From assembly GCA_964603585.1 (NCBI GenBank), contig CAZRVK010000003.1, forward strand, positions 67,693 through 131,692: a DNA stretch of 64,000 bases, given 5' to 3'. Both the position numbers and the translations under genes were made by a program. The first letter of the stretch is position 1. Each line of letters starts with the position of its first letter. This DNA is from an uncultured Planctomycetales bacterium. GTDB lineage: Bacteria > Omnitrophota > Gorgyraeia > Gygaellales > Profunditerraquicolaceae. Positions 1-53,864 of this stretch are shown piece after piece. Below the pieces are notes generated by a model. The model did no database searches and had not been told where the DNA came from. It worked only from the letters and a program-made list of their open reading frames with translations.

Positions 1-15
1 ACCAAAAGTAAGGCT

Positions 16-3000: not shown

Positions 3001-6000
3001 ATAAGAAGAGAAGAAGGAGTTAAAAGAGCCCGGGCGCAAGAGTTGTTAGATGGGATTTATTTGTTAGTCAGCCAAGGCCGATATAATGAGGCAAAACCTT
3101 TGGCTGTCGAGGCATATAATCAGGATAATATATTAAAACCAGTCGTGGCGTTGGTCAATAGCCCGATCGAACGGGGTGTATTTGAGGCAAGGCTTAGAGC
3201 CTTAGCGCAAGGGCTTAAAAGCCAAAGTAAAGACGATATCGAGGCTTCTTGCGGATATTTTATGAATCTTATCGGAGAATTCCCTCAAGCAGTAAGTTTG
3301 CTGTGTTCAAGGCTTGTATTCTCTATAGATACTACTTCTATCCAGGCAGATGAGGATATATCAGTCCTTTATCTTTTTTCCCGCCTGCCTTATGGGGCTA
3401 AGTCCCAAGATATGGTGGAGAGGGCTGTAGGGTTCATGAATTACGAAGGTTATCGCCAAGAGGATGTCCTTTCGGCAGGAAGGGAATTTTTCGAGTCTCC
3501 TTTTAGCGACGGCCTGATATATATGAATCAAAAACATGTAGCCCGGGCAACTTTTGAGGATAATAAATGGTCGATGTTGGCAAAATATTTAAACGAGATT
3601 GCCGCCTTCCCGTTATTAACCCGGTTAGGTGAAATTGTCTTAGGGGTAAGGGCAAGGTTTGCCAGAGAAGCATTGAAAAACGATGCTAAAAGAAGTCTGA
3701 TTGAATCTAATTTGAGGCTTGTAATAAGCTGTGCTAAGAAATATCGCTGGTCAGGATTGCCTCTTTTAGACCTGATCGGTAACGGTAATACCGGGCTTGT
3801 GAGTGCAGTAAACGATGAAAAATGGGATCCCAGCGAGGGGAAAAGATTCTCTACTTATATATACTGGTGGATCCGTCAAGCAATTTCAAGGTTTGTTGAT
3901 AATAACAAAGACCAAATCCGGCTTCCTCCGGATAAAGTCAGGGAGATAAATTTCCTGAAAAGCTCATGTGCCCGAAATGGCTTAGACCCTTTAAATAGGA
4001 AAGTTAGTACGGATGAGATCGCAGAAGCTATCGGCATGGATCCTAAAAAGGTAAAAGCTATTCGAAGAAATATGTTCTTGACGATCTCCCTGGACCAACC
4101 CCGGGGTCATAACAATGAGGATGGGCGAGAATCAAGTATTGCCGGTATTTTAGCAAGTAATGATGATGAGGTTGGCAGGATCCCTGATTTGCGTAGTGCT
4201 TTAATTAAAGTAGTTGAGACTACGGAGAGGCGTTTACGCCAGCGTTGGATGGCGGCTGCCGAGGAGAATATAGAAAGGGATCTTAAAATATTCAGGATAA
4301 GATTAGCCTCTTTATTAGGGCTGGGAGAACGCCAGACTTTAGAGGTTTTAGGCAAGGCTACAGGAGTTACCAGGGAAAGAGTTAGGCAAATCGAGGCTAA
4401 AGCTAAGCCGGTTTTTACCGAGGAGCTGCTTGCTTCCGGTATTACCCCGGAAGAGATCGAGCTGGTGCGCAGCGATTATCATGGAAAGTATTCTAAAGGT
4501 AAAAAAGGGGACGTTTCTAATTATTCAAGCCTAGTTTTAGCCGCGTCTACTACAGTCAGTTTAAACTTTTTACTTTTGATTATACTCGTGATATGCCTTA
4601 TGGCGCAATCCCCTCGTGGACCGCCTCAGGATAAAGTTGCGCAGGGATTTCCCTTAAGCGGCTTAACTCCAATTCCTAAGTTTCATCGTGAAGGCCTCGA
4701 TGCGAGCTTTTTTCCCATAGCAGAAATTTCCGAAGTTTTAAGATCACAAGACAAAAAAGGGTCCCTCGAAGTTACTATTACTGCGCATGAAGAAGGGAAT
4801 CTGCATATCTGTCTTGTTCTCATGCCGGTTAATGAGATCCTGGCAAAGATAGAAATGAGCAGGCAGGATTATATTGTAGTGACTAGGAAGAATCCAACGC
4901 TGCCGCGCGATATTACGGATATCATTATGAAGGATGATAGCGCTGTTAGAGAGAGTGAACCTTTTTGGGTGGGAGACGTAGTTGTTACCCGGAAGTATTA
5001 TACTGATCTAAATTGGATGGCCGCTGTTACGCATTTTTGGATTCATCCATTGCTTCGGCAAAAAGGGATTGGCGATTTGTGGTATAGAGGATTTGTCGAG
5101 CCATATATCCGGGAATGCGGTTTCGATATTGTTTTGGTCAGAGGAACATGCTTGGATGATTTATATATCAGTAATTTCTGGATCGACCAAGGTTTTTCTG
5201 ACACTGCTCCGTTAACCCAGTTGATCGGAGGCGAAACATTAATGGAATATGCTTCGGTAAAGAAAATTAATTCTTCTTCGCAAGCGCAGGATCTTGGAAT
5301 AATAAGTGGAACGGATGGACAGGGATCTTCGTTTTCCATTGGTACTCCATGGATTAGTACCCCGTTTCTATTCTTGTGCACTTTTGCTTTTCTTCTCTCG
5401 GTATTGTGGGCAACTGGGAATCCGCGCGGCCCGCCGTTTGCCAATCTATATATAGAAGAAGCGACATTAAATGATGTCGAAGAAATCGGAGGTATATTTG
5501 AGAGAGAGTTATTGCCTCTTTATGAGAACGATGTAGATGGCAGTCCATTATGGACAAGGAAACAATATGCATGCAGTATCCGTGATTCTATCTCTGGGAT
5601 AAGTGAAGGGCAGAAAACCAAAGGTATTGTATTGGTGGCTAGGGTGGACGGTCGCATTGCAGGATATGTGTCTGCATGTTTTTATCCTGGAAATAACTTC
5701 GGGGAAATAGATGAGATGGCGGTTGAGAAGGCTTATCAAAAACGTGGGATAGGTACAGCGTTGCTTAGCGGGGCGGTCTTTGCTCTTAGATCTATTCCAG
5801 GAATAGAAAGGGTTGTATTAACTGCGGATATATCTAAGGGCGGGAAAACAAGTAAAATTGCCCGTAAATTAGGGTTTCGCGCTAAAAATGACGCCATGAC
5901 ATTACGGCTTGATATGCCTGATGAGAAGGAGAAACGCAGTTCTCCGGTCGGCGGAGTAGTCGCAACAGAGAATATAGCCGAACCGAAGGTATTATTCCCG

Positions 6001-9000
6001 GTCTCAGAAATAGTAAAGCTTGATGCGAGCCTTCGCGAAGAAGCCTTTAATGTCGAGACGGTGCAAGGGGATCCGTTATTAAGCGCCAAAGATATCATTG
6101 GCTTCAATTTTGAGAGAATAATAGATAAATTCCGCACCTTTATCTTAAGGCATGACAAAGAAGAATTATCCAGTTTAACGCTTTGTCAAACAGGTGATGC
6201 AATATATTTTCGGATCCGTTTATCCGAGAGATTGAGGAACAAAGGTATCGGTAGGGTGTGGTTTTATCATATCCTTTTGCCTTATTTTTCAAGCCTTGCC
6301 GATTCAGGGATACAAGATATACGTACTTATTGGTACTGTTCGGAAGGCGGCTATGGCGATTTTATTATGGAGAAGTTGCATTTTCCTCATAAAAGAGCGA
6401 TACAGCTAGATACCTACGAAATAGTCTATTTTTGCGCATCAATGGTAAATCGAAATATACAGTCCCGACAAAGCACAGAAGATGGCCAGCGAACTCATTC
6501 TAATTACGCGTTCGCCGCGCCGCTTTTAGTTTTAAATGGACCTTGGGTGCCGAATATTCCGATAATTCCCTTGGGCATTATTATAGCCGGCTTGTTCTTA
6601 TTTTTAACGATCAAGCGTTTACCTGCAGGGGAGGATACATCCGTTTCAGTTCTTTCACGTTTTCTATCCCCGCAGAATGAACTTTTAGTGCTCATAAGTA
6701 ACGCGGACCGCTGGGCAAATTTTTATGACAAAATCGCCTTCCATACTCTTGTCAGGTTGTATTGGCGATTAAAAGGTTACAGGATCAAAATAATCAATGG
6801 GGCAACAAGGCGTAATCTGCGTGATGCCTTAAAAGATAACGGCGTAAAAAATATTGCTTTGACCGGACACGGGTCCTGGTCAAGCTGGGAGGCTTCTGAT
6901 GGGATTGTCAGTGAAGCGGACATCATCCGCTGGATGGGACCTGGCGTGGCGAAGAAGGAACTGTTTACAAAGTATTTCTGTGGCATCGGCGGAGATATTC
7001 CTCTAGGCTATCATGCGGTTAATGATCCAGAAGGCCAACTGTTTGGGACTATGCATGAGGCTAGTCAAAGTTGGTGGTTCGATAAACCAGGGCTATTTTC
7101 CTTAAGACAGCTCAAAGAGAATAAAGGCTTCTGGCTTTCATTCCTGCCGTCAAAATTATATGAGCGCTTGCAACGGACCGTTTTCGTTTTTATATTTCTT
7201 GAGACAGTTTCAGCTGTCATTGCCGCTGGCCTCATAAAGTATACTGATGCAACTATCCTTGCAAGTATATGGACAGGTTCATTGTGGGCGTTAATGGTAT
7301 TTGCGCCGGCTTTTATCGCTGCCTGGATATATCGCAACTGGGAATATTCAATAAGAGTTGGATTTGGGATATCCGCGATTGTTGCGGCTGGTCTTTTAAT
7401 GGCAAGCAGTTGGGTCTTTCCCGGGGTTGCGTTAATAAGCATCTTGGTTGAGAGGCATGGCATTGGTATGATTTTGGCTGTTCAATCATTGATTTTAATT
7501 GCCGGGATACTCTTATTGCCGTGTTTCTTCGGGAAAATCAAGGATAATGGTAAGCGGCAAGAAAGAGAAGAAAATAGGGTTAACAATGAGAAAAAAAGAT
7601 GGGCGCTATATGTCTTGCCAGCGATTGCTTTAGTAGCCGCGATAGCAGTTATTGTTGCACAACTTGTTTTGCCATCCTATTTCCTGCCTGTGGGCGCAGG
7701 CGCTGTTTTATCAGCCGAATTCCTTTACATTGCAATAGCGGCGCCTATCCTTGAAGAGATCGCCTTCCGGAATTTACTGTATAAACAAACGTTACGCAAG
7801 TTTTTCGGGGTGATTGTCTCTACAGCCATTTCCTCGTTTTTATTCTCGCTTACACATTTTGTATGTGAACGCGGGCTCGGCCTTTTGGATTTCGCCGTCA
7901 TGGTTACCTATGGAGTTGTTTTTGCCGTTTGTTACGAGAAAACAAAAAGACTGTGGGTACCCATGCTTTTGCATATGGCGAATAATTGCATACTTTATTT
8001 TGTCATTACATTCGGTTTGATAAACGGAGGGAATGTTTATGCGAGTTTATTGGGTTTACGGATAGTTCTTATCGGCCTTGTCAGCGCATGGCTTTTTGCG
8101 GGGAGAAAGAATTTTGTTTCTATCTTTGATCAACAGAGTAAACTCGACCGTGCTTTGGTTAAGGGGTATGAGTGGCTTGATGATAAAGTCTCGGCTTTTC
8201 TTAAATTGTTTACTTGTGCGTCTTTTTCGGTGCTCTCGGTATTGCGGGGAAGTCAAAATCCGCGCGGCCCTCCGCAGGATAAATCCGCTTCTCATCTATC
8301 TGCTTCTGCACGCCTTGATCTGGATAATGCGGTTAAAAAAGATGATTCTTATTCAATCCTTTCTGGGGTTTCATTGCCTACGCTTCTTGGCATTTTAAGT
8401 GTTTTTATGGTTACTATTTTGGTCCTTGGAATCATCGGATTGCGGGGAGCTTCTTGTAAACAAATTGTTAGATATAATGCAGGCAAACGGCCTTTGTCTT
8501 ATTCTGGGGATGATGCCCGCCCCTGCCGTGCATTAGTTCTTGATGACCGCAGGTCGAGGTTAGAAGAAGTTGAGCAAAACCTCGCTCGTTACGGATATCG
8601 CGGGGAGCAGTTTTATACCTTGCCTCGGGCAATGGCGGCTATGCGTAAGGCGCAACGCGAAGGCGTGCCTTACAAATTAGTAGTTACTGACCTTGATTTA
8701 GGGTGGAGCATTTTAAAGCCCCAGCTTGTGGTAGAAGGGTTACGGTTTGCAATATGGGTAAGGCAGGTTTATCCGCAAACCGAAGTTATCTTGAATTCTA
8801 CGCTTTTTAACCGGGGGAGTTATGCAGTAATGCTCCCTCTTGCCTTGGGTTTTCCTCGGAAAATTGAGATTTCCGGGATCAGTATTTTAGGTAAAGATAA
8901 TATATTCGCAGCATTTCGTGGCTTGGGAATGGATGAGTTCCATCAAAAATGGCTTATCCAGAAATGCCGGGAGCTTGCGGATTTGGGATATACTTTAGCA

Positions 9001-12000
9001 TACGAAAAATTTGAAGATGAAAGTAAGGGGTTTGTACATATTTGCCAGGTAAAGCAAAATGGAATTCTTCGCGGGGCATTGAGGATCGTTGAAACAGGCG
9101 ATACTTTAGGGATCCGCGATATTTATCCTAATTTGCCTGTCGGCCATGGATATGGCCGGGCGGTTTTATTACTTATGTTGATACGGCAAAACCGCTGGCA
9201 GGGGCGAGAATTTAATTCTTTGACCAGCAGTATCGTTGCCTGCCGGATGTTCCAGAGGATGCGCCGTTTTCGCATCGATATTAAGGAAATTGGGGATAAT
9301 TTCTGGCAGGTTAACGGGAGGGTTCCATATTTTAACCAGGGTGCTTTTGATGAAATAAAGAGTTCTGGTATCTATGAAAGCCACCAGGATGCAAAAAACC
9401 TGGCTTTTGCGCCTTTATTAGGCATGGAGTTATTGGCGCAGACAGGGTTAGGCTTCTTCGCCGGGAGTATGCTTTTGTTGTTTGGATGCCTACTTTTTGC
9501 TTATAATGTGCCGCAGGAGTTTTCTTTCAGCGGCTTAACTCCGGACCAGATATATCCGGCGTATGTCTCTCGTGTGGTTTCTGCTTTAGAGAGTATGGCA
9601 GAAAATCCTGCCGGAGGCAGGGGGCTGGATTTTCTTTTAAAATGGCCCGGTAAGTTAAGGGTTGGGGAGAGGATAGCTTTTCCTGTACATATCATTATCG
9701 GGCATCTGGATGAAAAGGAATTTTACCCCCGGCACAAAAAAGAGATCGCCCGTTATTTTCTTGCACGGGAAGATATTATGCGTTCTGCTTTATTGGTCAT
9801 GGCAAAAACCATAAAGTGTGCGGGCCAGCGAAACCGGCAAAGGGTTTTTGATATTTTCGCGGAAATGTTATATTCGGCCAACTTCCGGCAGCTGCGTAAC
9901 ATCCGCCGGATTTTGAGCCGGAAGATCTTCGAATCCCGCCGGGATATTGAATATAAGCGTGCGATCTTAGAGATGATGGCAAAAATGGATTATGGGTTTG
10001 CCAGCGCTGGCGGCGAGTCTTTTTCTTCTTTTGCACCGCTTGCTATGGCAACACCGGGTATCGGCATATTGTTTTTACTCTTATTGGCGGTAGTTATGTT
10101 TGCAGAGACGGGTATTTCTTTCGCGGATCAGGCTAAAGCATTTGGATTTTTTCCTGGAGAGTCCGAAGAAAATCATCTTTCTGGCAATGCCGCCAATATA
10201 TACGAGAGCTGTCTCACTTTTACTCATTCCAACAAAATTGCCCCGCAGCTTATGTTAAAGAATCCGGATATCCAGGATCATTGTCCGGAGCCTTCAAATT
10301 TCGTTATTCCTTCGATCATTTGGAATGAGACTTTTGAGTTAGCGGCATTATTTATAGTGATTGGTATTATCGGCGCAATATGGTTGTGGAAGAAACACAG
10401 GGACCATTCTATTTATTTGTCCTCTAACCTGGATGCTCCGTATATGCCGCAGGTTTCGACTAAATTTACTTCTTCAGAAAGAGAGGATATCGCCCAATCC
10501 GCTAAAAGAGTGTACGATCTATTTTCCGAGCGGCTTAATTTCAAAGATTCCCTAATGCTGAAAAGAAAACTACAGCAGGTTAAAGTAAGGCCTTTGCCTC
10601 AAAGACTGCATTTGCGGATGGCTTATTTATTATGGGCCGCCTGCGGGTTATTCTTGTTGTGCGGAATTATTTCTGCAGATAAACAAATAATATGGTATTC
10701 GGCGGGGATTGTATTCTTTGGCAATATCGTTGCTATGATTACATACCGTTTTGGATTTCCTCCGGGAGAAAAGCAGAGATCATGGTCAAATCGATATATA
10801 TATCTTGATCGAAATGACGCAAATTCATGGGATCTGGATTATGAGCTGATCAAATATATCTTCAGCCAATTCTATTATAGCCGGGACCCCTTGGTCTCTA
10901 CGGCTATAGCACATTCATTAATTCACCTGGATAGGCCCGGGATCGCCTCTTTAATGGATCTTTCAGGGTTTAAAGAGGATATTGCCGAAGGATTATTCTC
11001 GCCCGAGGCGGTAGTTAGTAATCTGGAGGTATTCTTGGCAGGCAAATGCAGCCAAGAAGAAAGCGTGCGCAGGCAGTGCCAGCGTTATTGCGATGCAATG
11101 CGTAAAGAAAATTATATTAGCGGACATGCGGCAGAGGCAGCCGCTACAACACTTGTCCTTTGGGATCTGTATGGGGTTGAGGTTGCGAAAAGTTTTATCC
11201 TTCAATATGCGGTTAGTAATTCTGTCAGCGAGGCATTATTCCTGGCTTTGTCCTTAGGAAAGCCATGGCAGCATAAAATGATGGCTTTTTATCGTCCGTC
11301 ATTGAGGTTAATATTAGAGTTATCGGTTTCAAGTGCTTTATCTGTAATTATGCTTATCCAGAATGAATATGCCCCAGCGTTATTGTTTGCGGCATATTCC
11401 TTGTATCGTCTTGTAGGTATATTCTTCCACAAACGGATTGATTTAATAGAGTTTTGCCAGGGGATTAATGAAGATAAAGCCAAGGCTATTGAGTTTCTTG
11501 CGCCAGGAAATGTATTGAGGATGATAAAGATAAATTATGATCAGGAGCATATGCCGTGGTGCAAAAAGGTGTTGGAAGAGTTCCAGACATTTATCGCAGA
11601 AAAAGGTGACTCCTTGTCTCCACCGGATATTCAATCAAAGGCGGCAGTGGATGAAGTGCTTAGGCGTATAGAGGCATCTTACGCCGCTAAGAGCGGCAGG
11701 AATTCCAGCTCTAATCATACATTCGCGGTTTTTCCGGTGGGGGCTGGTTTATTTATTCTTTTGCTGATAGCGGCAGCTATTTTGGCGATAACGCTAATAG
11801 CCAAAAGGGCAATAACCGGACTGCATTTATCGCGAGCCCCGCCCCAGGCTGGCAATTTGCATCATCAAATCTCTAAAAGGATACGTAATGTTGTAATTGT
11901 TACTTTGGTTTGTGCTCTCGGTATATCTGTAGTGTATTCATTAGGTGGGTTTAGCGCGTATTTTGCAGTAAAGAATTCACAGCCCGCGCACTCGCTGTTC

Positions 12001-18000: not shown

Positions 18001-21000
18001 TTTCCTCCGGTTATTGTCGTTAAACATTGTGTTGAACCTGATGTTGCTTTGGGCATGATCAAAGATCTTCATCTGTCTGCGCAGATAATTAAAGGCGGTG
18101 AATTGATCCTGCCGTCAAAGGTATATTTTGCCGTTTCCGGCAGGCAGCTAAATTTCGCAGAAGACGATTATGGGTACCGCCTGCGGTTGTTAAGAGCTTC
18201 AAGCAGTAAGCTCGGGTTTGTTCCGTCTATTGACAAATGCTTTAAGTCAGCGGCGAGAATTATTGGTTCGGATACAGTTGGAATAATCTTAAGCGGGTGG
18301 GGTGATGATGGGGCAAAAGGGATCGTAGATATCTATGAGGCAGGAGGGTTGACGATTGCGCAGTATCCGGAAACCTGTTTAAGGCCGGATATGCCGCTAT
18401 CGGCTATTCAGACCGGAGAGGTTAGCCATATTTTAGTCCCGGAGGCGATCGGAGATCTTATTGCTCAAAATAAAGAGCGGCCCGGGGAATTTGCATATTG
18501 TCTTATGTTTCTGCCTATCACGGCCTTTATTATTGCTTTGTTTTATTTGTTGCTGGATCCGTTTAAGTTTGCACAAGGAGTGGGGATTTCTTCGCAAGGT
18601 TTAATTAATGATAGTAATGAAAACATGGTTTGGCGGATAAAATTTTTAATGAAAAAGCGAGGTTGGAACGCATCCGGGCTTGTACGTGAAATTCATCGTA
18701 AGGCAATAGCCTTAGGCCAACTTCCGGAAACCACTCCGGAGGCGGTATGGCGCTGGCTTACTGGAGAGCACCATCCGGATATAAAGATAATCCCTGTATT
18801 AGCTGCGGCATTAAAGGTTGATCCTTGTTGGTTGGTTTCGGGCCTGCCTTTAGCGGCTGCGATGCGCCAGGAGGTTTTGCTTCCTAATGAGAAGGAAAAA
18901 GCCGGTTCAAGCTTGGGCAGGCGGGTGTTAATTTTACGCTGGGTGCGCGGGATGACATCGGTAGAACTTGCCAGGCGGGTTGGGATGAGCCTGGGTAACC
19001 TCAATAATATCGAACAGCATCTTAAAACCTATCCGCGTCCTGTATATATAGGTAAGATTGCCCAGGCCCTGGGGGTAAGTCCGGCATTGATCCTGACAGG
19101 CTTTGAACGGAACCACGTGATCGCAAACCTTAAATATCCAAAGGACAGATTTTTATTTTTGCGATTATGTGCCTGTATGACCCAGGATGAGCTTTGGGAG
19201 AAATTAGTTGATCAATATGGAGCGGATATCGAAGGCCGGCCAACCGTGGCGCAATGGGAACGGGGCGTTGTTCCAGACGCGCCGCATATAAGAAAAGCGC
19301 TTAGCAGGCTGTATGGGGTATCTTGGTCCAGGTTGAGTGCGGTTAACCAAAACGGTAAAAGGCTTAGTGAATTCATGGAACTGGAGGCGGTTGCAAAGAC
19401 GCGTAATTATTTCGCCAAGATCATTGATTCTAATCTGCCGGATTCCTCGATTGTAGTACGTTTCCCAGCGATTGTAAGCGATATTATCATGGCCGATCAA
19501 ATCGGTTATGATATTGGCCCGGTAGTCAATATACTCTTTGATCTGGTGAATAAAGATGTAAATGGCAAAAGGGCAGTCCGTATGAAGAAAATACTCCATG
19601 CCCTGGATTTTTACCAAAAACTTTTTCTTCTGCGGGCAGGGACATGGAGGGCCAGGGATGAACGGGCAAAATATTTTGCCAGCGTTGTACTCAAAGATCT
19701 TTTGAAAAAGATAAACGATTCTGGTTTAGGCAATAACCAGACGGCAAAGATAGCCCGGCAGGTTTTTTGGTGCGACATCGTAGATTTTTTAAGCGGCAAT
19801 CGCGGTAGAGAAAGTGCGGTTAAGTTCATTGAAGCGCAAAAAGATGCAGCCGTAGGTTTAAGTAGGGGACAATTGAATGGTTGTCCGGGTATCTGCCGCA
19901 GTCTTATGAATAGATATGGATTTATCAATATCGCTTTACGCCTGGGTTGGCCGATAGAGGGGATAAATTCTGGTCCCGGAGAGTTTGAAAATAACGCACA
20001 AGGATTTAAGAAACGGGTATTTGATTTTTACATTCGTAATCAACGTTTTCCTAAAGTAGAAAAAGGGGGATTAAAGGAGTCTGATGTTTGGGTGATCGAG
20101 CTTTCTAAATCGCTTCTTGGCGGCAGTCTTGCGATGTTCAAGCTAAGGTTTTTCGAAGAATTCTCCGATCAGATCAAAACATTGATACGGCGCTCTACTC
20201 CTACGGTCAAGAAACGCATGTATGCAGAATTGTTGAGCGTTTTGCCTTTTGACCGCGATGCACTGGAATTTGTATCGCAAGATGCCGTGGAACGCGCAAA
20301 AGATGAGGCGCGCATGCGTAAGATCGTGCGCGATTTTGATACTAACGTCAGGGTTTATCATTGGTATGATTACAACCTTGAAAATGATGAAAGGATATCC
20401 GAGGCGAAAGCCTCGGCTGATATGATCGTAAGTTACTCTGATTTCGGCTTGCTTTCTTCGGCGCAGCTTGTGGGTTTGTGGAGTGAAATGAAAAGAGGGA
20501 ATTCGATTGCCCGCAATTTCATTATGGATTCAAATACCGGGCTTATCGTTTCTTCAGCCCGGGATATCGCAAGGCGGCCGTTAGCGCGGAATATCAGCGT
20601 CGCGGAACTGCGCAATGAAGGGTGGTTTGGCCTGCGTATTGCCGCAGAAAGGTTTGATCCGGCACGCGGGAATAAATTTTCTACCTATGCGATGTGGTGG
20701 GTGATGCAGGCGCAGACACGGATGTGCCTGTACGGCGGCAGGACGATACGTGCGGATCCTGCCAAGGTCGCGCGTTTTTATCGTCTGCGGCAGAAATTAG
20801 CTGAACTTGATGGTGCGGGTTTCGAACAAAGGGCCAAGAAGAGTTATGCCATTATTTACGATAAGACTAAAAGGGAAGCCGATAAATTACGGGAACTTTT
20901 GGCAGGCGCGCTGAACACGAAGTCTCTAAGCGATAAAGTAGGTGCAGATGACGATGGTGCTATATTCTCGGAGTTTGTCGAGGATGTAAAATCCGAGGAT

Positions 21001-24000
21001 CCGGAAACTGCCGCAGGGATTTTCGATGAACGTGAATTTGTCAGGGATTGCCTCAAGCAAATGCCTAACGAAAGGGAAAGAAGGATACTGGAACTGCGCT
21101 ATGGCATTAACCCGCCTACTTTGGAAGAGTGGGGGATATTAAAAGGCCAAAAGCTCGGGCTTACGCGTAATCCTCTTAACGGATGGCCTAAAGGCAGGGA
21201 CCATTTAACTTTAGAAGAAGCAGGTTTGATTTACGGCATTACGCGTGAGCGTATCAGGCAGGTTGGCAAAAAAGCAGAAGAGCATTTTGCCGCGATCGTT
21301 CAGGTTTGCCGGCCTAAGGTTTGCGCTGGCCAAGGATCCGATCCGCATCGGAAAAAACCCGGGCAAACTCCCACAGAGGTTGATATGCAGGAAGATCTGC
21401 TTAGTTCCGGTTCACCTGTTGATAAGGATCCGTATCTTATAGAAGCAATCGATGAAGCACAGAGCCGCGTAGGCAGTAAAGATAGTAAAGTAATGATTGC
21501 ATTGCAGCAGTTACGGGATACTCTTGTTATTCGCGCAGGGCCGTTTAAATACATCTGGGGCGCATTTCGCGGACAAACCCTTTTTCTGGAAGAAACCCTT
21601 TTAAATGATCCTGCCTTACGTTTTGATCTTCTCGTAACTTTGATCCATGAGGCGCGCGTTATCGCTTATCCTTTAGCCAAAGATGAAGAAAATGAGACTT
21701 TTGCCCAGGATTGCATGAATTGGCTGCGTGAAGGGCTGGGGTTGGAATTTGTAGTCAAGGACCACGGGGCAAAGGATCTTGGTCCGGTGATTTATAAAGG
21801 GACTTTTTGCGATATCGCTTTGGATATTCCCGGTTATGCAAAACGCGGCATTAGTGTCCCGTTTATTTTGGATGTTACCCAGCACATGCCGCAGGGGATA
21901 TTTGAAATTATAAACCCCTTTGAGGTTAATAGCGATTGCGGCGGCAAAGGAGGTCTTAAGGAACTATTACAGGTTTGCCATCAGTACGGAATGCATCCGG
22001 TGGCGCCTGCGATCTTCAATCATATTTCTCGCTTTAGCCCTCTTTGCCGGGATCAACCCGGGTGGTTCATTCGTGACCGCCATGGTAAGATCATGTCTGC
22101 TACTGACCGGCGCCATGACGGGGTCTATTCCTGGGAGTGGCGGAACCTTGCGCAATTAGATTTAACTAACCCAAAAGTCCGGGAGTTTATTTTACAGATA
22201 GCGCGGCATCTTATTAACCTTGGTTTTGACGGTCTTTGGTTGGATGCCGCAGGTGCTTTATTAAATAGGAACATCAAGCGCAACTGGACAGATCTTTTAA
22301 GCCCGGGCGTCGGCTCTGTGATGCAGGAAGAGTTGATCCCGCAAATCTTACGCCAGATCCGCAAAATTAAACCAGAGGCCAGGCTGGTTGCCGAATCTTT
22401 TGACCCCCAGGATCGTAAAGAACTGGAGGGTATGGGGGTTGATTTAACCATGGATTGGGAGGCGATCGAAGCCATAAGCGATACATTCAAATGGCCAAAC
22501 TCTTCCAAACTTCGAGATGTCTTAAATAGCGCTTATCGGCTGAACCTGGAGAGACGGATACTCCATCGGCTTAATCATGATAAATCGGATTCCCGTACTC
22601 ATTCTGTTCATTTCTCGAGAGAAGAAGTGTCATTTACCGCGGCATTTATGGCGGCTTTGCCGGGAGCTTTCTGGTGGTTCGAAGGCGAATTGGAGGGCCG
22701 GGATTATTTTTATCATCGCAGAGGTGTAATTCCTGTTTCTTCATCGGATGATGATAAAGAATTAGCAGGTTTTTATGACGGGTTTTTAAGGTTGGTTTCA
22801 CGCCCGGTATTCCGCAGAGGTGAGTTTTATATCCTTCAGGCGAAAAACCCGGGGGATTTGATTTCTCCTGTTTGTGCCTTTGCCCGTAAACTAAAAGATG
22901 AATTGGTTATAGTGGCAGCTAATCCCAGCGTCTTTAAAGGCAATGACGGATTGTCCTGGGCAACTTTTAATCTGGAAGGCCTTATTGGTTCTGAAGATTG
23001 CGATTTTCTGGTTGAAGATTTATTGACCCAAGAACGATTCCCAGGGGTTTCCTCCCAGGTTATCCGCCGCCATGGTTTGCCGGTAGGGGTTAAGCCTAAG
23101 GGGGTGCAATATCTTAAATTGACCAGGAAGGACACCTTTGGTACAAGTAATGTTTCTTCTTTTACTTTGGGCTTATTTGCCGGGCAGGTCCTTTCAGGGC
23201 CTTTTTTAGCCTTTGCCTTTGCGATCATTTGCTTAATGTTGATAATGCCCCAATATGCGGTTGGAGTATCGGGTAAGGTTATTAATTCAGCAAATATGGG
23301 GGGAGAAAAAGAAAATGACTATTTATCTTCTCCGCATCTGCCGTATCGGTATGTTACTTTTAAATCGGATCATTTCTATGCCATTACAGCGCTTTGCGGG
23401 ATTAAATCCCTTCCTATGGATATCCAGCCTGCCTGCGGCGGGGTGGTGTTTAGAGAATATCCCGGGTGTGATCTTTGCGAGCAGGCGGTGGTCAGTTCTG
23501 CGAAAGAAGAAGCCAAAATATTAGCAGCGGAAACTGACCGGATATCCGCATTGTGGAATATTTATTTAAGAGGCGCGGCAACCGTGATCATTTCAGACGG
23601 AAAAATAAGCAAAAAAAATGTTTTATCTGTTTGGGCGCGGTATTTAGCGGCAAGAAAAATGCTGGGGTGGCGCTATATAGTTACCTCCGATCTGGGGACA
23701 ACCGAGCAGGATATGAATGTTATCCGAGATAGTGCTTATGAATCGGCCCTGCAGGGATATCTTGGCCGCGGGCATATTAAACGTTATGCTAAATCCCGGA
23801 TAAAAAGGATTTTACGCCAAAAGGATTGGGAAAAGCTTGACCATGGTCTTTCCTGGAGGTTAAAGTTGATCAATCCGGCTGCCGGAGCAACCGAGGACAG
23901 GGGGGGGTATCCGCCTTTTGCTTGGTTATTGGGAGGGATCAGTTTAGTCTCGGTGATCAGGATGGTGTTAGGTCTGAAGGATTATTCCGAAGTCACGAAC

Positions 24001-27000
24001 ATTATTGTAGATGGTTTTGGCCGAACGGGTCAGATGATTACCAGGGCTTTGATCACTAATCTTCCGGAAGATATACGGTTTATCGGTATTTCCGGCAAAG
24101 GAGCGCTTGCAAAAGGTATTTATAGCAGTGTCGGTATCGATAAGATTGACCTTTTAAAATGTATCCCGGAAGTTGAAAAGGGCCAGGATGTGAGTTTAGT
24201 CCCGATTTTTGCCGATAAATGCCGTATCCTGGATAAAGAAGAAATGCTGGCGCAGGAAACAGGTATTGTTATCCTTGCTGACCGCGATCGTAAACTGGGA
24301 TTGGATGAGCTTGGTAGAATTAAAGCGGCGGTTGTAGTGGAAGCCATTCCCGGGATATTGTCGCGCCGCCAGATCGAATGGCTGCGCAGCCAGGGCAAGT
24401 TATATGTTTCCCCAGTCTGGGTAAATGGAGGGATACTTTTTGGCGCTCGAGAGGAGATCCTGCACCGGCTCTCAACCAAGGAGAATAAACATATTTCCGA
24501 TATGCATTGGCATGTGCAAAGCGGGGCAAGTGAATTTGCTTTTGCCACCGTATTCGAAGAATTTATCCGGTGTGAACGGGAAGGTTTTCCCAACACCGTA
24601 AATCCAGGGGCGTGGCATATGGGCCGGGAAATGGCGGCTCTTATCCGCAGGCGGGAATATTTATTTTGGATGAAGGTTCAAGCAATGTCGAAGAGAATCC
24701 ATAAAAATGGGTTGCAGGGTCTTGTGGATACAAAAGATGGATGGCGGGCAGGCATGAAATTGATGCCATACTCTGAAAACGAGTTTATTCCGGTGATAAA
24801 CCTGGCGATCATGAATTATTTTAAAGGCAGGAATTGCGCCTTTTCTTTTAGCAGTGCGATAGCCGAAATCGCCCGCCAAGAGATCATCTTTAATGATGCT
24901 TCCGCAGAGGATGCGGTTGGTGCCTTAAAAATTGACCGGAATGAGCTGTTTAATTCTGTTTTCGACCTGTGGAAGCTAAACCAACGACTCACGGTACAAC
25001 AGGCAATGGATATCCTGGGGTTGACTGGCCGGTATAAAGCCGAGTTGATCCATTACGCTCTGTTGAGGATTAACCGGATCAGCCAGGCAGGAGACTTTTC
25101 GATAGATGATAAAGATAAGGTTTTAGAACAACTCTTGGTCATTGATGAACGGATAAAGCGAGTAGCGGCTTTTAATTTGAGCCGGCTGTCCCGCTCTCTG
25201 GATAAATTGGATTTGATCGATGATGCTGTGGATGGATTATTAAAACAATTGAAAGACGGCAGTTCTTTCCATATCCGGGCTAATTCTGCTCATGCCCTGG
25301 GATTTATTTATCCATATATACACCGGGATGAACAGAGGAATGCCGTGGCCAGAGGCCTGCTAAGCGCATTTTCCGACCGTAATGAAGAAGTTTCGAGTTG
25401 GGCTTATTGGGCTATTTCGGTAAATGATATTGATCTTAAGGCGATGATCGGGCAGGTTTGCCTGGAAATAAAGTCTCTGCGCAGGGTGATTGCGGCTAAA
25501 CCCGGGCATATAGAAGTTTATTTGACCCGGTTAGGTAATTTATATCAGCTCAAAGCCAATATCCATGATTTCAATGGATCAAAGAAAAAGGCCCTGCATT
25601 GCCGTTTGCTGGCGCAAGAAGCATATAAAAAAGCGGAAAAAAGGCATGGGCCGCTGGCGTTGGAATATGCGCTTGTGTTAGCCAGGAGCTATCAGCAGTC
25701 AGGGAATATTCCGGCGGCAATCCGTGAATATCTTCATTTGGTTAACCCGTCATTGTTTAAAATAAGGGCAGGGTATCTTTATTCCGGGGATTTGGCGGAA
25801 CAGTCCCGCCTGTTGGCTTTAGAGGGGATCCTGCATATATATTGCCCGCTTTATTCGGATGCGAACATTCTTATTGCCGCCAGATTAAGTGATATTATGA
25901 CCAGCGTTAATTCTGGAAACATGCCCGGCCTTGATGCAGGATCGTGGCAGGCCAGGTTATTCAAGGCGGTGATACTTACCAATACGGATTTATCGGGATA
26001 TCAGATACCTTATCTGGGCTTACTGCTTGTTTATGGCACAGAGATCTTTCGTCAGCCAGATCAAATGCGGATACAGAATCTTTTAAGGGATATTTTGATG
26101 TTCCGGGGATTTTCTACTAAAAAAGGTAATACCAGATCAGAGTTTAAAATAAAACAAATGCTGCGTGCCCGGATCCGTTCAATGGGGCTTACGGCAGAAG
26201 AGGGCAGTCAGATAATGACCCTTTTTGAAGATTTGAATATTTTGGGAGGGCACAATGACTCTTTCCCGCAGCTTGCCGGCCCGGCCATACATCCTATCAC
26301 TGCCGGTGCAATGTTTAAGGCAGCCAAGGTTTATAAGAACGTTAAGGGTATAGCGGATAGATTTAAAAGGCTGGGGAATATTTTTTTAATGCTGGCTGTT
26401 GTATATACAAATGCCGGGCAGATGAAATATGCGGTGGATTCCGGTAAATTAACCGGCCCGCCGGCGCGGCAGGCAATAGAAGAATATATTATGGCTTTAA
26501 ATGATAACCAGTTAGAAGCCCTTCGGAATTATCCATTGGCGACAAATCTTACCTGGGATCTTGCGCTTAAACGAAAGACCCGGGCAATACTTAAGAAATT
26601 AGGCTATTCAAGCCAAGAAACGGATTTTTGTATAGAGCAGATCGATATCCATGAAGCATCCCGGTTTGAAGAACAAGCTATAAAGGCGCAGGCCTGTTCT
26701 TTGGCCAGATCTAAAAAGACGTTTGCCGAACCTGCCGTGGATGTGTGTTTAGATAAAAATGGTTTTAAGGAGATAAGGGTACCGCAGCTTCGTGGTAATT
26801 TGTTGATAACCGATGTTTCTTTCTCTCCGGTTGATGGTCGTATTTTGGAACTGACGCGTTGTGTTCTGGAAGAGGTCATTCGCCCCGGATACAAAGTCCT
26901 TGATCTGGGCACTGGCCCCGGGACAAATGGCATCATTGCCGGACAGGTGTTTAAACAGCAGGGCGATAAAGGTGAAATATTCCTTAGTGATATCGTTGCC

Positions 27001-27435
27001 TCTAACCTTAAATTGGCAAGAAAAAACTTAGCAAGGTTCGGTTTGGAACATTTTGCCAGGTTTTTCGTTCCGGGGGATCTTTTTGATCCGGCAATTGAAA
27101 ACGGGGTTAAATTCAATGTGGTTATTTTTAATCCTCCTTGGTGGAAAGGTCTGCCGGCCAATGACGCACAACGCGCCCGGATTGACCCCGGAGAGCTTAT
27201 CCACAGGTTTTTCCAGCAGGTGATGCGGGTCGCGGATAAAGATGATTTCCACATCGTTTTCATTTATGGAACGCGCCGCAGCCGTATCCCGGCTGTTAGT
27301 ATGGCTGAACTGGGGCATCTTATTGAAAAAAACGGTTTTGTATTTGCAAAAACACATTTTCATTTTCCGGATAATGGATATAAGACCTGTGTTTACGTGC
27401 ATCAATTACGCCCGAAGGAACAGGCCCAGAGATAA
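16..27435 (+). CDS. Giant multidomain, membrane-associated mosaic protein (>=9139 aa). The reading frame is open to nt 1, so the 5' end is probably outside the window
   Basis: Stop-free frame of 27.4 kb (chance expectation is about one stop per 21 codons at this GC). The same frame contains many recognisable domains (sigma-70 r2/r4, GNAT, CPBP, alpha/beta hydrolase, trypsin-like, TrmB-like, transglutaminase-like, CheB-like, HTH-XRE, GH13-like, ELFV-dehydrogenase-like, NPPW methyltransferase). Flanking genes use TAA/TAG/TGA as stops. The first codon listed (TTG at 16) is only the first start-like codon; codons 1..15 in this frame contain no stop. The frame terminates with TAA at 27433..27435. 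Confidence 0.85.
   Translation: [9139 protein letters not shown]
1440..1920 (+). other. Cluster of about 4 predicted TM helices followed by a highly charged K/R/E-rich (coiled-coil-like) segment within the giant ORF
   Basis: Hydrophobic stretches [47 protein letters not shown] and [16 protein letters not shown], then [43 protein letters not shown]. Confidence 0.5.
3525..4410 (+). other. Sigma-70-like module 1 (regions 1.2/2-4) embedded in the giant ORF
   Basis: [16 protein letters not shown]...[44 protein letters not shown] matches sigma-70 region 2 (the FSTYAxWWIRQAI hallmark). [22 protein letters not shown] matches the region 4.2 HTH. Confidence 0.8.
4540..4690 (+). repeat. Copy 1 of a protein-level repeat module: hydrophobic helix + (Q)SPRGPPQDK + GFPLSGLTP
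   Basis: [51 protein letters not shown]. The SPRGPP codons lie at 4609..4626. Confidence 0.6.
4766..5160 (+). other. GNAT-like acetyltransferase domain 1
   Basis: [36 protein letters not shown] resembles the GNAT motif A (R/Q-x-x-G-x-G/A) followed by the C-terminal helix. Confidence 0.5.
5350..5440 (+). repeat. Copy 2 of the TM-helix + NPRGPP module
   Basis: [29 protein letters not shown]. The NPRGPP codons lie at 5419..5436 and match copy 3 at 17/18 nt. Confidence 0.6.
5560..5900 (+). other. GNAT acetyltransferase domain 2
   Basis: [84 protein letters not shown] is a classic GNAT motif A/B arrangement. Confidence 0.7.
6190..6390 (+). other. Possible third, degenerate GNAT-like segment
   Basis: [26 protein letters not shown]. 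Only motif-A-like similarity. Confidence 0.3.
7700..8000 (+). other. CPBP/CAAX-protease (Abi) family intramembrane metalloprotease domain
   Basis: All three CPBP motifs are present in order: EEIAFR (EExxxR), FSLTHF (FxxxH) and HMANN (HxxxN), within hydrophobic helices. Confidence 0.75.
8190..8285 (+). repeat. Copy 3 of the TM-helix + NPRGPP(QDK) module
   Basis: [33 protein letters not shown]. The NPRGPP codons lie at 8257..8274. Confidence 0.6.
8525..8830 (+). other. Response-regulator receiver (REC)-like domain
   Basis: [61 protein letters not shown] follows the pattern of beta1 acidic pair (LVLDD) ... phospho-acceptor-like D in VVTDLDL. Confidence 0.45.
8830..12600 (+). other. Long polytopic membrane region (more than 12 predicted TM helices). 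It contains a 4th, partial copy of the repeat module ([29 protein letters not shown], about 9440..9560)
   Basis: Numerous 18-24 aa hydrophobic stretches, e.g. [114 protein letters not shown]. Confidence 0.5.
12672..13320 (+). other. Alpha/beta-hydrolase fold domain
   Basis: [10 protein letters not shown] (oxyanion HG), [11 protein letters not shown] (G-x-S-x-G nucleophile elbow), ...GSGDVVIP (acid) ...[10 protein letters not shown] (His). Confidence 0.8.
14461..14730 (+). other. HEAT/PBS-lyase-like repeats
   Basis: [15 protein letters not shown] ... [14 protein letters not shown] ... [14 protein letters not shown] show a repeated (R/A)xAAxxALgxxg pattern. Confidence 0.4.
15775..16260 (+). 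other. Trypsin-like (chymotrypsin-fold, DegS/HtrA-like) serine protease domain
   Basis: LLTNTHVV (His), FTDIAVLAI (Asp), [21 protein letters not shown] (GDSGSP serine motif). The triad is complete and in canonical order. Confidence 0.8.
16525..17040 (+). other. TrmB-like (tRNA m7G46-type) class I SAM methyltransferase domain
   Basis: [31 protein letters not shown] aligns with TrmB [42 protein letters not shown] aligns with [25 protein letters not shown] aligns with LQLGGVFHMATDW. The FPDPWHK motif is degenerate here (ALNPRHD), so the domain may be catalytically altered. Confidence 0.7.
17368..17590 (+). other. Transglutaminase-like / papain-like cysteine protease core
   Basis: [23 protein letters not shown] (Cys + GIPAR-like segment) ... 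[12 protein letters not shown] (His) ... ALYIDAAYG (Asp) has the spacing of the Transglut_core C-H-D triad. Confidence 0.55.
17923..18470 (+). other. CheB-like methylesterase domain
   Basis: [15 protein letters not shown] aligns with CheB IAIGASTGGTEAI (Ser). VIVVKHC aligns with LLITQHMP (His). [34 protein letters not shown] aligns with [34 protein letters not shown] (Asp). Confidence 0.75.
18640..19100 (+). other. Two tandem HTH-XRE (Cro/C1-type) DNA-binding domains
   Basis: [28 protein letters not shown]...[14 protein letters not shown] and [30 protein letters not shown]...[16 protein letters not shown]. A possible third lies at about 19150..19330 ([16 protein letters not shown]...[15 protein letters not shown]). 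Confidence 0.6.
20430..21290 (+). other. Sigma-70-like module 2 (regions 1.2/2-4, with an insertion of about 25 aa in region 4)
   Basis: [47 protein letters not shown]...[39 protein letters not shown] (region 2) and [11 protein letters not shown]...[25 protein letters not shown] (region 4.2). Confidence 0.8.
21913..22470 (+). other. GH13 (alpha-amylase family) catalytic-core-like domain
   Basis: [39 protein letters not shown] (GG..L.e.ldyl. + region I DAVFNH-like), [17 protein letters not shown] (region II GFDGFRxDAA with the nucleophile Asp), [10 protein letters not shown] (region III, acid/base Glu). Confidence 0.6.
23990..24460 (+). other. Glu/Leu/Phe/Val-dehydrogenase-like NAD(P)-binding (Rossmann) domain
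   Basis: [13 protein letters not shown] aligns with [54 protein letters not shown] aligns with [39 protein letters not shown]. No convincing N-terminal catalytic half. Confidence 0.55.
26840..27300 (+). other. C-terminal class I SAM methyltransferase domain of the N6-adenine / HemK (PrmC)-like type with NPPW motif
   Basis: [17 protein letters not shown] (motif I) ... [11 protein letters not shown] (motif IV, NPPW). Confidence 0.75.
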
Positions 27436-27539
27436 GGCCGGAGCCCCGGGTTGGAAGAAATAAATAACAGGGCATTTAATTCAGGATAGTTTATGATACA
27501 TTAGATTATGAGATAAGGATTACTAAAAAGGAGGCGCAA

Positions 27540-28244
27540 ATGCAAGAACAGCGGAAATTATCGAGGTTGATCACTAAACGCAAAGTCAAGGTTCTGCTTA
27601 ATGGCGCGCATGCCTATGTCAGCGGCTATCTGATCGATCTTAACCTGAAGGGCGGTCAGCTTGCTTTACCGATCAAATTGCCGGTAGATACTTTTTTGAA
27701 AATGTCTTTGGTGCTTTGCGATGATTTTGTCCTGGATATCGAAGTTTGGATCGTCTGGAACAGTTTGAGGCACGGGCTTAATGTTTACGGCCTGTATTTC
27801 AGCCGGATAAAAGATGAGGATAAGGAGAAAATATATAAATTGCTGTTAAGGGATTATTCCAGCCAATTAAACCAGAGATGGTGGGGGGCTAATAGAAAAG
27901 GAGGGCATGAAATGAAAATCGAAGCATATAATGACAAAAGGACTTTTGCCCGATTCCCGGTCCAGTTTTCCGCAAGGTTGTTGTCAGCGCAGTTGGATAA
28001 AGAAGTCCTTGCCCAGGTGCGGGATATCAGTGCCAAAGGGGTAGGTTTAGCCGCAAAGGTAAGATTGCCTGCTCGTACTGCCCTGGAATTATGGCTGGAT
28101 ATTCCGGATGATGCGGAACCGCTTTACTCCCGCGGGGAGGTTGCTTGGTGTGGGGAAGGTGCGGCCGATGAGTACCGGATGGGGGTATCTTTAGAAAAAG
28201 CGGATTTTATGGGATTGGCAAGGGTCTTAAGAGTAAAACAGTAG
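27540..28244 (+). CDS. Tandem PilZ-domain protein (putative c-di-GMP receptor)
   Basis: RBS AAAGGAGG at 7 nt upstream. The second half has canonical RTFAR (RxxxR) + DISAKG (DxSxxG). The first half has RKLSR + DLNLKGG (S->N variant). Stop codon is TAG. Confidence 0.7.
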   Translation: MQEQRKLSRLITKRKVKVLLNGAHAYVSGYLIDLNLKGGQLALPIKLPVDTFLKMSLVLCDDFVLDIEVWIVWNSLRHGLNVYGLYFSRIKDEDKEKIYKLLLRDYSSQLNQRWWGANRKGGHEMKIEAYNDKRTFARFPVQFSARLLSAQLDKEVLAQVRDISAKGVGLAAKVRLPARTALELWLDIPDDAEPLYSRGEVAWCGEGAADEYRMGVSLEKADFMGLARVLRVKQ

Positions 28245-28366
28245 GGGATGGTTTTTGAAGAAAAAACCTTGAAATATTGATAAATGTATGTTAAATTTTA
28301 GTATTGTCTTTACTGCCTAAAAACGGCTTTTTGCATACCTATACTAATGTAATCTGGAGAGGATAA

Positions 28367-29671: not shown

Positions 29672-29689
29672 TTCGGATTATCACTGCAC

Positions 29690-30571: not shown

Positions 30572-30573
30572 AA

Positions 30574-33731: not shown

Positions 33732-33808
33732 AAAGGAGGCAGCAAATTAAACCTAAATATAGAAATCCAATATTAGTAATAGCAACTAAATACAAGGAGG
33801 TTGTAGCG

Positions 33809-39669: not shown

Positions 39670-39689
39670 CCTTAAAGAGAAATTTATAT

Positions 39690-41396: not shown

Positions 41397-41401
41397 ATAT
41401 T

Positions 41402-45418: not shown

Positions 45419-45472
45419 AAGTGGTTTTTAACGCCGGGATGATTAAAACAGGAAACTTAAGCCAAATTAATC

Positions 45473-45500
45473 TTGTGATTATATTGTTTGCAGATATAAT
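45473..45500 (+). promoter_or_regulatory. Candidate promoter upstream of the MshEN-like gene
   Basis: TTGTGA (45473..45478), 16-nt spacer, TATAAT (45495..45500). RBS AAGAGG at 45506. Confidence 0.35.
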
Positions 45501-45519
45501 AAAGTAAAGAGGACATCAT

Positions 45520-48224: not shown

Positions 48225-48287
48225 CCGAAAATGCCCTTTGGAATTACAAGATGAGTGCATGCTATACTTTTTCTAAGGAGTTAGCAG

Positions 48288-53857: not shown

Positions 53858-53864
53858 GGATAGT

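Follow-up and report, generated by a model that had tools for sequence, protein, structure and literature searches.

Does a bacterial gene that runs for more than 27 kb without a stop codon encode one protein or many? The question is raised by a giant open reading frame (ORF) at the left end of a 64-kb stretch of DNA (64,000 nt of contig CAZRVK010000003.1, here called the window). For the giant genes of Omnitrophota, whose cleavage points are not known, West-Roberts et al. 2023 (bioRxiv 10.1101/2023.11.21.568195) explicitly leave it unanswered. Nucleotides 1-27435 are very probably the 3' end of a genuine giant gene from a divergent Omnitrophota-lineage bacterium. The explanation favored as a whole is that this gene specifies one membrane-threaded chain, that the chain is cut at the junctions between its modules, and that the products act with a neighboring pilus machine and importer; its probability is put at roughly 0.5.

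The ORF lies in frame +1 and is free of stops from nt 1 to a TAG at 27433-27435, a total of 27,432 nt or 9,144 sense codons.

1-27435, + strand: 3' part of the giant ORF (9,144 codons plus TAG); its 5' end lies beyond the window

An earlier note on this DNA had described a stop-free ORF of at least 27.4 kb that is still open at nt 1, and this description holds; its figure of 9,139 codons matches a mechanical ORF call from the first TTG (nt 16), which gives 9,139 aa. The second-longest stop-free run in all six frames of the window is 4,089 nt. For DNA of this local base composition one stop is expected per ~17 codons, so that 9,144 open codons would arise by chance with a probability of ~1e-239, and the other two frames over the same DNA contain 32-61 stops per 2 kb. 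Codon usage in every 3-kb tile of the ORF resembles that of the neighboring genes (cosine 0.93-0.96 in frame, ~0.79 out of frame). The chance estimate and the uniform, neighbor-like codon usage agree with the note's view that the frame is kept by selection. Its statement that the genome is not recoded is likewise correct, because downstream genes end in TAA, TAG and TGA. A 219-aa antisense ORF at 26604-27263 (- strand) lies fully within the 3' end of the giant gene and is most likely a by-product of coding-strand codon bias.

It is highly improbable that the frame is an artefact or a product of decay, whether an assembly chimera, a fused operon or a pseudogene that is not translated as annotated. 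Such a reading can draw on the 5' 17.5 kb, which has no independent assembly, and on a relative (L085) with an in-frame stop inside a shared module, by which frames of this kind can be interrupted. Errors break frames and do not create them, however, and the chance estimate, the uniform codon usage and the intact catalytic motifs described below all oppose it. The DNA of the ORF contains a single 34-nt tandem repeat, and all direct repeats are at most 42 nt, which makes collapsed or wrongly joined repeats an improbable source of the frame. Two independent Logan assemblies, from different sequencing runs, match the window at 100% identity, one over nt 17540-30369 (SRR15237810) and the other over nt 21856-28333 (SRR15237811). 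The last 10 kb of the giant ORF and its junction with the next genes are thus independently reproduced. When window nt 1-40 were searched for exact matches in JGI metagenome contigs, nothing turned up that would extend the gene upstream.

Modules of the visible chain

The visible 9,144 aa form a mosaic of about 25 unrelated modules, which include enzymes, DNA-binding regulators, two complete sigma-70 factors and two or three proteases. Modules were recognized by Pfam, NCBIfam and PDB sequence searches together with inspection of signature motifs. Pfam yields ~14 distinct domain regions that are significant or near threshold, and further modules are recognized by motif, so the more than 15 in-frame domains claimed earlier are about right. 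Approximately half of the visible chain has no Pfam match. The principal modules are as follows.

3583-4476, + strand: sigma-70 module 1, regions 1.2-4.2 (aa 1195-1492); Pfam, NCBIfam, PDB and motifs
4624-6525, + strand: three consecutive GNAT-type modules (aa 1542-1782, 1808-1985 and 1985-2175), each with motif A [QR]xxGIG
7180-8103, + strand: CPBP/Rce1-like intramembrane protease (aa 2394-2701); Pfam E=3e-18, best match at aa 2572-2664
12670-13320, + strand: α/β-hydrolase (aa 4224-4440); Pfam E=4e-25 (aa 4224-4354) and PDB
15745-16209, + strand: S1-like (trypsin-type) serine protease (aa 5249-5403); Pfam Trypsin_2 E=8e-4 and motifs
16630-17037, + strand: TrmB-like S-adenosylmethionine (SAM) methyltransferase (aa 5544-5679); Pfam E=8e-15, NCBIfam TIGR00091 and motif I
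17932-18462, + strand: CheB-type methylesterase/deamidase catalytic module (aa 5978-6154); Pfam E=4e-33
18913-19089, + strand: XRE-type helix-turn-helix (HTH) domain (aa 6305-6363); Pfam
20443-21276, + strand: sigma-70 module 2 (aa ~6815-7092); Pfam, PDB, NCBIfam and motifs
21901-22620, + strand: GH13 α-amylase-type module (aa 7301-7540); Pfam E=1e-4, at the family cutoff (aa 7301-7497)
23323-26244, + strand: Glu/Leu/Phe/Val-dehydrogenase-like plus HEAT/TPR module (aa 7775-8748); Pfam, weak HEAT matches, 39 relatives
26881-27159, + strand: C-terminal SAM methyltransferase (aa 8961-9053); motif I LDLGTGPG and motif IV NPPW

The highest copy numbers are three for the GNAT-like modules and two for sigma-70, with no tandem repeats and no dominant family. 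Two kinds of giant protein were considered and rejected. A giant repeat adhesin (Bap, RTX or Ig-like) does not agree with DNA whose only tandem repeat is 34 nt long and which has no direct repeat above 42 nt. A megasynthase would be expected to show the defining domains of non-ribosomal peptide synthetases or polyketide synthases, and Pfam and NCBIfam find none in the visible ORF (condensation, adenylation or carrier domains; ketosynthase, acyltransferase or acyl carrier protein domains).

Sigma module 1 aligns with residues 60-333 of the 336 of RpoS (PDB, E=5e-34). Its nearest relatives are stand-alone RpoD, SigA and RpoS proteins of 280-600 aa with 36-42% identity, and there is no giant protein among its best 120 relatives. 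It retains FSTYIYWWIRQ and TRERVRQIE, and module 2 retains FSTYAMWW and TRERIRQ. Both modules therefore keep region 2.3/2.4 (FSTY..WW..Q) and region 4.2 (TRER[VI]RQ), which in E. coli sigma-70 are determinants of promoter recognition.

The enzymatic modules preserve their signatures to a similar extent. The CPBP module has ~10 helices and intact EEIAFR, FSLTH and HMANN motifs (EExxxR, FxxxH and HxxxN). The α/β-hydrolase shows a GFSMG nucleophile elbow and a candidate catalytic His within GAGHG. Aligned with 1CHD, the CheB module shows a conserved Ser-His-Asp triad, and the GH13 module carries region II (GFDGLWLDAAG), VAESF and NHD. The S1-like module has the His, the Asp and GDSGSP; against PDB it gives no significant match, with alphavirus capsid proteases, which share the GDSG motif, at E about 0.5. 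Pfam matches one of the GNAT-type modules (aa 1874-1960), and the other two are recognized by motif A. A further region, M07 (aa 2205-2392), gives a faint Peptidase_C25 hint (E=0.23). The kept CheB triad, catalytic motifs and sigma determinants make the modules look functional, and judged by its families the domain set is largely cytoplasmic in type. The longest helix-free run in the chain covers nt 18568-23160 (aa 6190-7720), a span of 1,530 aa with HTH domains, an unassigned region, sigma module 2 and GH13.

Junction helices, relatives and the fate of the chain

Hydropathy analysis indicates 37 candidate helices, roughly one per 250 aa. Ten of them make up the CPBP domain, a few occur in small clusters, and ~14 stand singly between soluble modules. 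The latter have a layout in common, in which an S/N-rich tail leads to a small residue and a Phe, often with Pro or Gly soon after, and then to a helix of ~20 aa and one or more basic residues. The small residue plus Phe precedes 10 of the ~14 isolated helices (examples are SS-F-A, YA-F-A, LA-F-A, HT-F-A, SS-F-T and VS-F-I). After the helix, five junctions carry [RH][GA]PP, in the forms NPRGPPQDK, SPRGPPQDK, NPRGPPFAN, SHGPPDAG and SRAPPQAG; the expectation is 0.21, and none of 1,000 shuffles reaches five. Six junctions illustrate the layout.

82-186, + strand: junction J0028, with GS-F-SFLPL, helix, SHGPPDAG
4513-4680, + strand: junction J1509, with S/N-rich tail, helix, then SPRGPPQDKVAQGFPLSGLTP
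between the first two GNAT-type modules, + strand: junction J1783, with SS-F-SIG, helix, WATGNPRGPP
8188-8295, + strand: junction J2730, with helix, then GSQNPRGPPQDK
11713-11850, + strand: junction J3905, with NSSSNHT-F-AVFPVG, helix, then KRAITGLHLSRAPPQAG
23161-23280, + strand: junction J7723, with SNVSS-F-TLGLFAG, helix, directly 5' of the dehydrogenase-like module

Two junction pairs share 40-42 nt at 80-83% identity; J2730 and J1783 have a 42-nt stretch in common at 83%. The window-internal LSVLWATGNPRGPP resembles the N-terminal signals of two relatives, ...ILWANPD (P0012) and ...VVWANPE (P0028). From these features we infer that the junctions are recognized elements. Not every boundary follows the pattern: the GNAT-type modules are separated first by J1783 and then by a helix-free KRSSPVGG linker, and SSS linkers were rejected as a universal boundary mark, being significant only in three relatives (P0003, P0005 and P0025) and modest in the window.

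Separate translation of the modules finds no basis in the sequence. The 9,144 codons contain 17 sites with a Shine-Dalgarno sequence and a start codon, none of them at a junction, and modules could not be translated separately by ordinary initiation given the rarity and placement of such sites; internal initiation at the junctions is rejected on these grounds. The NPRGPP motif was also considered as a 2A-like skipping site or as a pause site (XPPX) dependent on elongation factor P. Skipping of the 2A type belongs to eukaryotic ribosomes, and the NPRGPP sequence is too near the helix for a simple targeting pause.

The orientation of the helices bears more directly on whether the chain is cut. 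Ten of 12 junction helices have more Lys and Arg (K/R) on the C side, two are tied and none has more on the N side, and the bias holds for consecutive junction helices too. The CPBP helices provide an internal control, as their charge bias alternates perfectly (N/C counts of 3/1, 1/2, 1/1, 1/4, 4/0, 0/3, 4/1, 1/3, 3/1 and 0/3). Modules of cytoplasmic type flank single helices on both sides, for example in the order sigma, helix, GNAT-like, helix, GNAT.

The main rival to cutting is an uncut megaprotein, a membrane-threaded "beads on a string" scaffold that co-localizes enzymes and regulators at the envelope and whose junction motifs have no role beyond membrane insertion or flexible linkage. 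It holds a sizeable minority of the probability and is the default in the literature, where 94% of long Omnitrophota proteins are predicted to be membrane proteins, with a helix roughly every few hundred residues, and where detection of peptides from the giant ORF of V. archaeovorus is reported. The window ORF adds the lack of internal starts, and Ser-rich linkers, which are commonly flexible and not universal among the relatives, would suit it as well. In an uncut chain with single helices, however, successive helices must alternate in orientation, and this forced alternation between inside and outside would place modules that depend on SAM, acetyl-CoA or RNA polymerase outside the cell; West-Roberts et al. 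2023 also remark on implausible localizations. The charge bias of the junction helices is uniform, whereas the CPBP helices alternate. It is difficult to see how a sigma factor could work in a holoenzyme while tethered within more than 9,000 aa of one chain, and the dehydrogenase-like/HEAT module exists elsewhere as a separate signal-peptide protein.

That module also supplies the comparative evidence. The giant protein appears almost unique in sequence: an indexed search of 5.8 billion proteins returned one relative for aa 7760-8950 and none at E<=1e-3 for aa 1495-2830. The dehydrogenase-like/HEAT module has 39 relatives in an exhaustive HMMER search that used aa 7700-8850 as query. In eight of the 39 the module is embedded in large proteins of 2,129-6,904 aa, mostly ended by contig edges. 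Its flanks differ in each of the eight, which share no further module with the window except for one short stretch in P0007. On the contig of another relative (L001; 38% GC; Logan SRR33235153) the module forms a gene by itself (1,001 aa) between stop codons, which begins with its own signal peptide, MKYILNHYKQCIAMIVSLSLVVTSLPAQA... The variable flanks and the stand-alone gene indicate that modules are mobile and self-contained, and at least one of them is, on this comparison, an evolutionarily mobile unit. Nucleotides 123-4828 of L001 hold three successive genes with similar signal peptides (...SFSMVASGMP, ...SLSLVVTSLPAQA and ...SISLVMTGMP), an array that resembles a dismantled giant gene. 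The gene upstream in L001 does not match any module of known giants. Two of the three L001 products end in ...SSL or ...RSL.

Other lineages carry repeated junction cassettes of their own. P0020 (6,753 aa) has five copies of a ~105-aa hydrophobic cassette between modules (GAGMIPVVREWLGETWARRVQALGEQ...HFIPSHMPRPPTWR..., at aa 3254, 3690, 4547, 5479 and 6047) with 75-86% mutual identity, P0003, P0005 and P0025 show a significant enrichment of Ser-run linkers, and P0037 repeats LDNGG. Where the flanks of relatives can be read, about half have a helix or signal just 5' of the dehydrogenase-like/HEAT module. In L085 (GCA_041653115.1, JBAZGA010000023.1) an in-frame TAA at nt 17830-17832, inside the module, ends the 5,930-aa ORF P0007. 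Homology to the window continues in the same frame past the TAA into the next ORF of at least 2,947 aa, for a joint frame of at least 8,900 aa; the TAA could be a sequencing error, a nonsense mutation or a site of read-through.

In the favored explanation, translation would begin upstream of the window and yield the chain as a single polypeptide, which the junction helices would thread into the cytoplasmic membrane. As a cellular polyprotein it would then be cleaved at the junctions, or close to them, by the embedded CPBP and S1-type proteases and possibly by signal peptidase, to give individual proteins that are either anchored in the membrane or released. The products may act with the adjacent pilus/secretion machine, which would be controlled by cyclic di-GMP (c-di-GMP), and with the sugar importer during contact with host or prey cells. 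Cutting is favored because of the uniform charge bias, the cytoplasm-type modules on both sides of helices, the embedded proteases and the gene boundary in L001. Taken by itself, proteolytic maturation at the junctions is a tentative proposal drawn from these sequence features, with odds somewhat short of even.

Several points weigh against this explanation. The first 17.5 kb (nt 1-17539) is covered by one assembly only. Statistical support for the pre-helix motif is soft (it precedes 12 of 34 helices, where 6 would be expected), and the junction motifs were defined after the junctions had been inspected. The K/R differences at the junctions amount to only 1-2 residues, so the charge bias is suggestive and no proof. 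The Trypsin_2 match of the S1-like module scores below the Pfam family cutoff, and structure models of this module and of M07 are unusable (pLDDT 33 and 40). About half of the relatives with readable flanks have no hydrophobic helix within ~110 aa upstream of the dehydrogenase-like/HEAT module, so a helix is not obligatory there. The stand-alone homolog has a classical N-in signal peptide, whereas the junction helices of the window are biased in the opposite direction. Finally, published giants carry C39 or S8 peptidases and a SecA-like domain in their N-terminal parts; in the visible 9,144 aa Pfam and NCBIfam detect no SecA_DEAD, C39 or S8 domain, and the N-terminal part lies outside the window.

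The strongest form of the proposal is a true cellular polyprotein, in which a product of more than 9,000 aa would be cut at lineage-specific cassettes into at least 25 proteins and the sigma factors would become active on release. This is conceivable, if doubtful. Should it be correct, giant Omnitrophota genes would be "stop-less operons" rather than genes for giant proteins, the junction cassettes would also be sites of in-frame recombination for module swapping, and two promoter-competent sigma factors would become active only after release.

The downstream locus and its lineage

The genes that follow the giant ORF bear on its lineage and on two further explanations.

27540-28244, + strand: PilZ (c-di-GMP receptor) gene, directly 3' of the giant ORF; Pfam
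28367-31422, + strand: ABC importer, with a solute-binding protein (28367-29671) and two permeases (29690-31422)
31419-37891, + strand: four signal-peptide proteins, two with a GH2-type TIM barrel (31419-33731 and 34956-36269), the other two unassigned
37966-47251, + strand: two GspE/PilB-type ATPases, a GGDEF-AAA-HEAT protein, an MshEN-domain protein and a GspF/PilC platform protein
47248-54886, + strand: pilin/pseudopilin genes with the prepilin leaders RKKA/FTLFE, RKKA/FTLIE and GG/FTLLE (the slash marks the predicted cleavage site)
54899-58975, - strand: PilM, secretin, T2SSB-like, PilO and an unannotated ORF (a PilMNOPQ-like block)

The ABC importer is probably a sugar importer. The first secretion ATPase finds its best matches in metagenome-assembled genomes (MAGs) of Omnitrophota and in Ca. 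Gygaella obscura, at 43-48% identity (one genome per GTDB species), and the series T2SSE, T2SSE, GGDEF/AAA, MshEN, T2SSF and large pilin-like gene is collinear with two loci from Omnitrophota MAGs (L003 and L004). Gene order, ATPase matches and collinearity together point to a divergent Omnitrophota-lineage genome, outside the GTDB set, as the source of the window. The choice of Omnitrophota as comparison group in the earlier note is thereby supported by gene order and by the collinear secretion cluster. No ribosomal marker gene lies within the 64-kb window, and no giant ORF occurs in the 10-kb flanks of the Omnitrophota MAG loci.

Three genes of the locus are related to c-di-GMP: PilZ (27540-28244), the GGDEF-AAA-HEAT gene (1,338 aa; 41402-45418) and a stand-alone MshEN gene (45520-46035), all on the + strand. 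The GGDEF-AAA-HEAT gene lies between those for the secretion ATPases and that for the platform protein. Both ATPases carry MshEN domains. At 47248-48224 (+ strand), two adjacent pseudopilins have Ala, not the usual Gly, at the predicted cleavage site (MRKKA/FTLFEIM and MRKKA/FTLIEVM). Two proteins of 816 and 980 aa (48288-50738 and 50915-53857, + strand) have prepilin-like N-termini (KTG/MILIATLL and QRG/FVLIFSLL) and no Pfam domain, and are weakly conserved at the same position in L003 and L004. Past the pilus cluster, at 59412-64000, lie a ROK-family regulator, a coiled-coil membrane protein, a LacI-family regulator and the start of a ribonucleotide reductase gene.

With such a cluster next to the giant gene, the modules themselves might be pilin-like: the junctions would be degenerate class III signals, cut by prepilin peptidase, and the type IV pilus (T4P) or type II secretion system (T2SS) machine would extract and assemble giant "pilins". 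A pilus/secretion cluster is conserved beside giant genes, the window junctions have a small residue and Phe before the helix, the window pseudopilins use Ala at -1, and the two pilin-like proteins reach 816 and 980 aa. The most suggestive case is P0004 (L084, JGI 3300033141), on a contig that is a single ORF throughout. Its junction at aa 1250-1290, right after the shared module, reads SRSG/FSLIETMVAVSALAGL, a near-canonical prepilin motif that scores E=6e-4 and 19.8 bits with Pfam N_methyl, just under the 21.2-bit cutoff. In the window itself, by contrast, none of eight junctions matches N_methyl even at E<=10, the Glu at +5 is absent, and the charge bias is opposite to that of prepilins, with the positive residues on the C side. 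No prepilin peptidase gene is seen among the window genes, and in an intact chain only alternate junctions could face the cytoplasm. Prepilin-type junctions in the window are ruled out by the N_methyl test and the charge bias, and the motif of P0004 stays a lead; as a general explanation, giant pilins are very improbable.

The locus also invites the reading that the giant is a mostly extracellular protein that binds and degrades the envelope of prey. The GH2-like genes, the sugar importer and the pilus/secretion cluster would accord with it, as would the one GH13 module and the HEAT/TPR repeats within the ORF and the secretory signal peptide on the stand-alone homolog of one module. It is nonetheless unlikely. 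Two sigma factors, HTH domains, CheB, the TrmB-like and NPPW methyltransferases and three GNATs dominate the visible set, and the visible ORF yielded neither adhesin-type repeats nor dockerins, lectins or lytic transglycosylases. By its families, this domain set fits the published idea of "adhesion and cell-wall digestion" only weakly.

Comparison with known giants and polyproteins

Giant genes of this kind are less rare than the earlier note had supposed, as thousands of ORFs of at least 10,000 aa, and of up to 147,155 aa, have been catalogued in Omnitrophota. West-Roberts et al. 2023 report pilZ, solute-binding protein, permease and glycoside hydrolase (GH) genes and a T2SS/T4P-like cluster near the giants of this phylum, and the same gene pattern is described by Nielsen & Lui 2026 (bioRxiv 10.64898/2026.06.07.730766). 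By gene context and architecture the locus very probably belongs to this published class, termed "Archaeovorin" in the former paper and multi-enzyme cluster in the latter. The likeness includes a very long single ORF with numerous hydrophobic helices and a nearly unique sequence. Many Pfam families without a dominant repeat (methyltransferases, GNATs, glycoside hydrolase, peptidases and HEAT) tile the chain, none of them dominating, as in the multi-enzyme cluster class. The order of pilZ directly downstream, then solute-binding protein, permeases and GH genes and a T2SS/T4P-like cluster, is shared as well. There are also differences. The published Archaeovorin set exceeds 30,000 aa (more than 90 kb), whereas 9,144 aa are visible here in a frame open at nt 1, and it includes glycosyltransferases and NUDIX domains, neither of which occurs in the visible 9,144 aa. 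Relative to the giant gene, the pilus/secretion cluster is downstream here but upstream in the published Archaeovorin loci. Two complete sigma-70 modules are present here, while a text search of both papers finds no mention of sigma factors.

Giant Omnitrophota genes of the Archaeovorin or multi-enzyme kind are thus already known. What is new are concrete junction signatures, evidence for the autonomy of modules and two captured sigma factors, all of which bear on whether Omnitrophota giants are one protein or many. The locus supplies testable junctions, with a small residue/Phe before the helix and [RH][GA]PP after it, and two relatives offer further leads, L001 with a real gene boundary at a junction and P0004 with its prepilin-type motif. 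It also indicates that housekeeping-type sigma factors can be captured into giant genes. If cutting were confirmed, these would be the largest polyproteins known and would represent a new organization of gene expression in very small symbiotic bacteria.

Among systems outside Omnitrophota, three offer parallels. In Bacillus, pro-sigma-K is a membrane-associated precursor that is released by an intramembrane protease. As there, a sigma factor here would sit in a membrane-associated precursor with an intramembrane protease at hand, the CPBP module; the sigma factors of the window, however, lie thousands of residues deep between other modules, the protease family differs, and release is only proposed.

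MARTX toxins of Vibrio and relatives are giant chains in which unrelated effector modules are reshuffled between strains and an embedded protease cuts between modules. The window ORF resembles them as a giant single chain with an array of unrelated modules and cytoplasm-type activities, and it too contains embedded proteases, for which cutting is postulated rather than established as in MARTX. The identity itself was rejected: Pfam and NCBIfam detect no RTX or glycine-rich repeats, CPD cysteine protease or type I secretion genes in the ORF or its neighbors, and hydrophobic helices separate the modules here.

Polyproteins of flaviviruses and pestiviruses are encoded by one ORF, contain internal signal and anchor helices, and are cut by an embedded serine protease and by signal peptidase. 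The present gene differs from them in being cellular and about three times longer or more, in having mostly a single helix per junction instead of a signal/stop-transfer pair, and in that its cleavage is a proposal. With these differences in mind, MARTX toxins and flavivirus polyproteins would be the closest mechanistic analogs of a giant chain that is threaded through the membrane and cut at its junctions.

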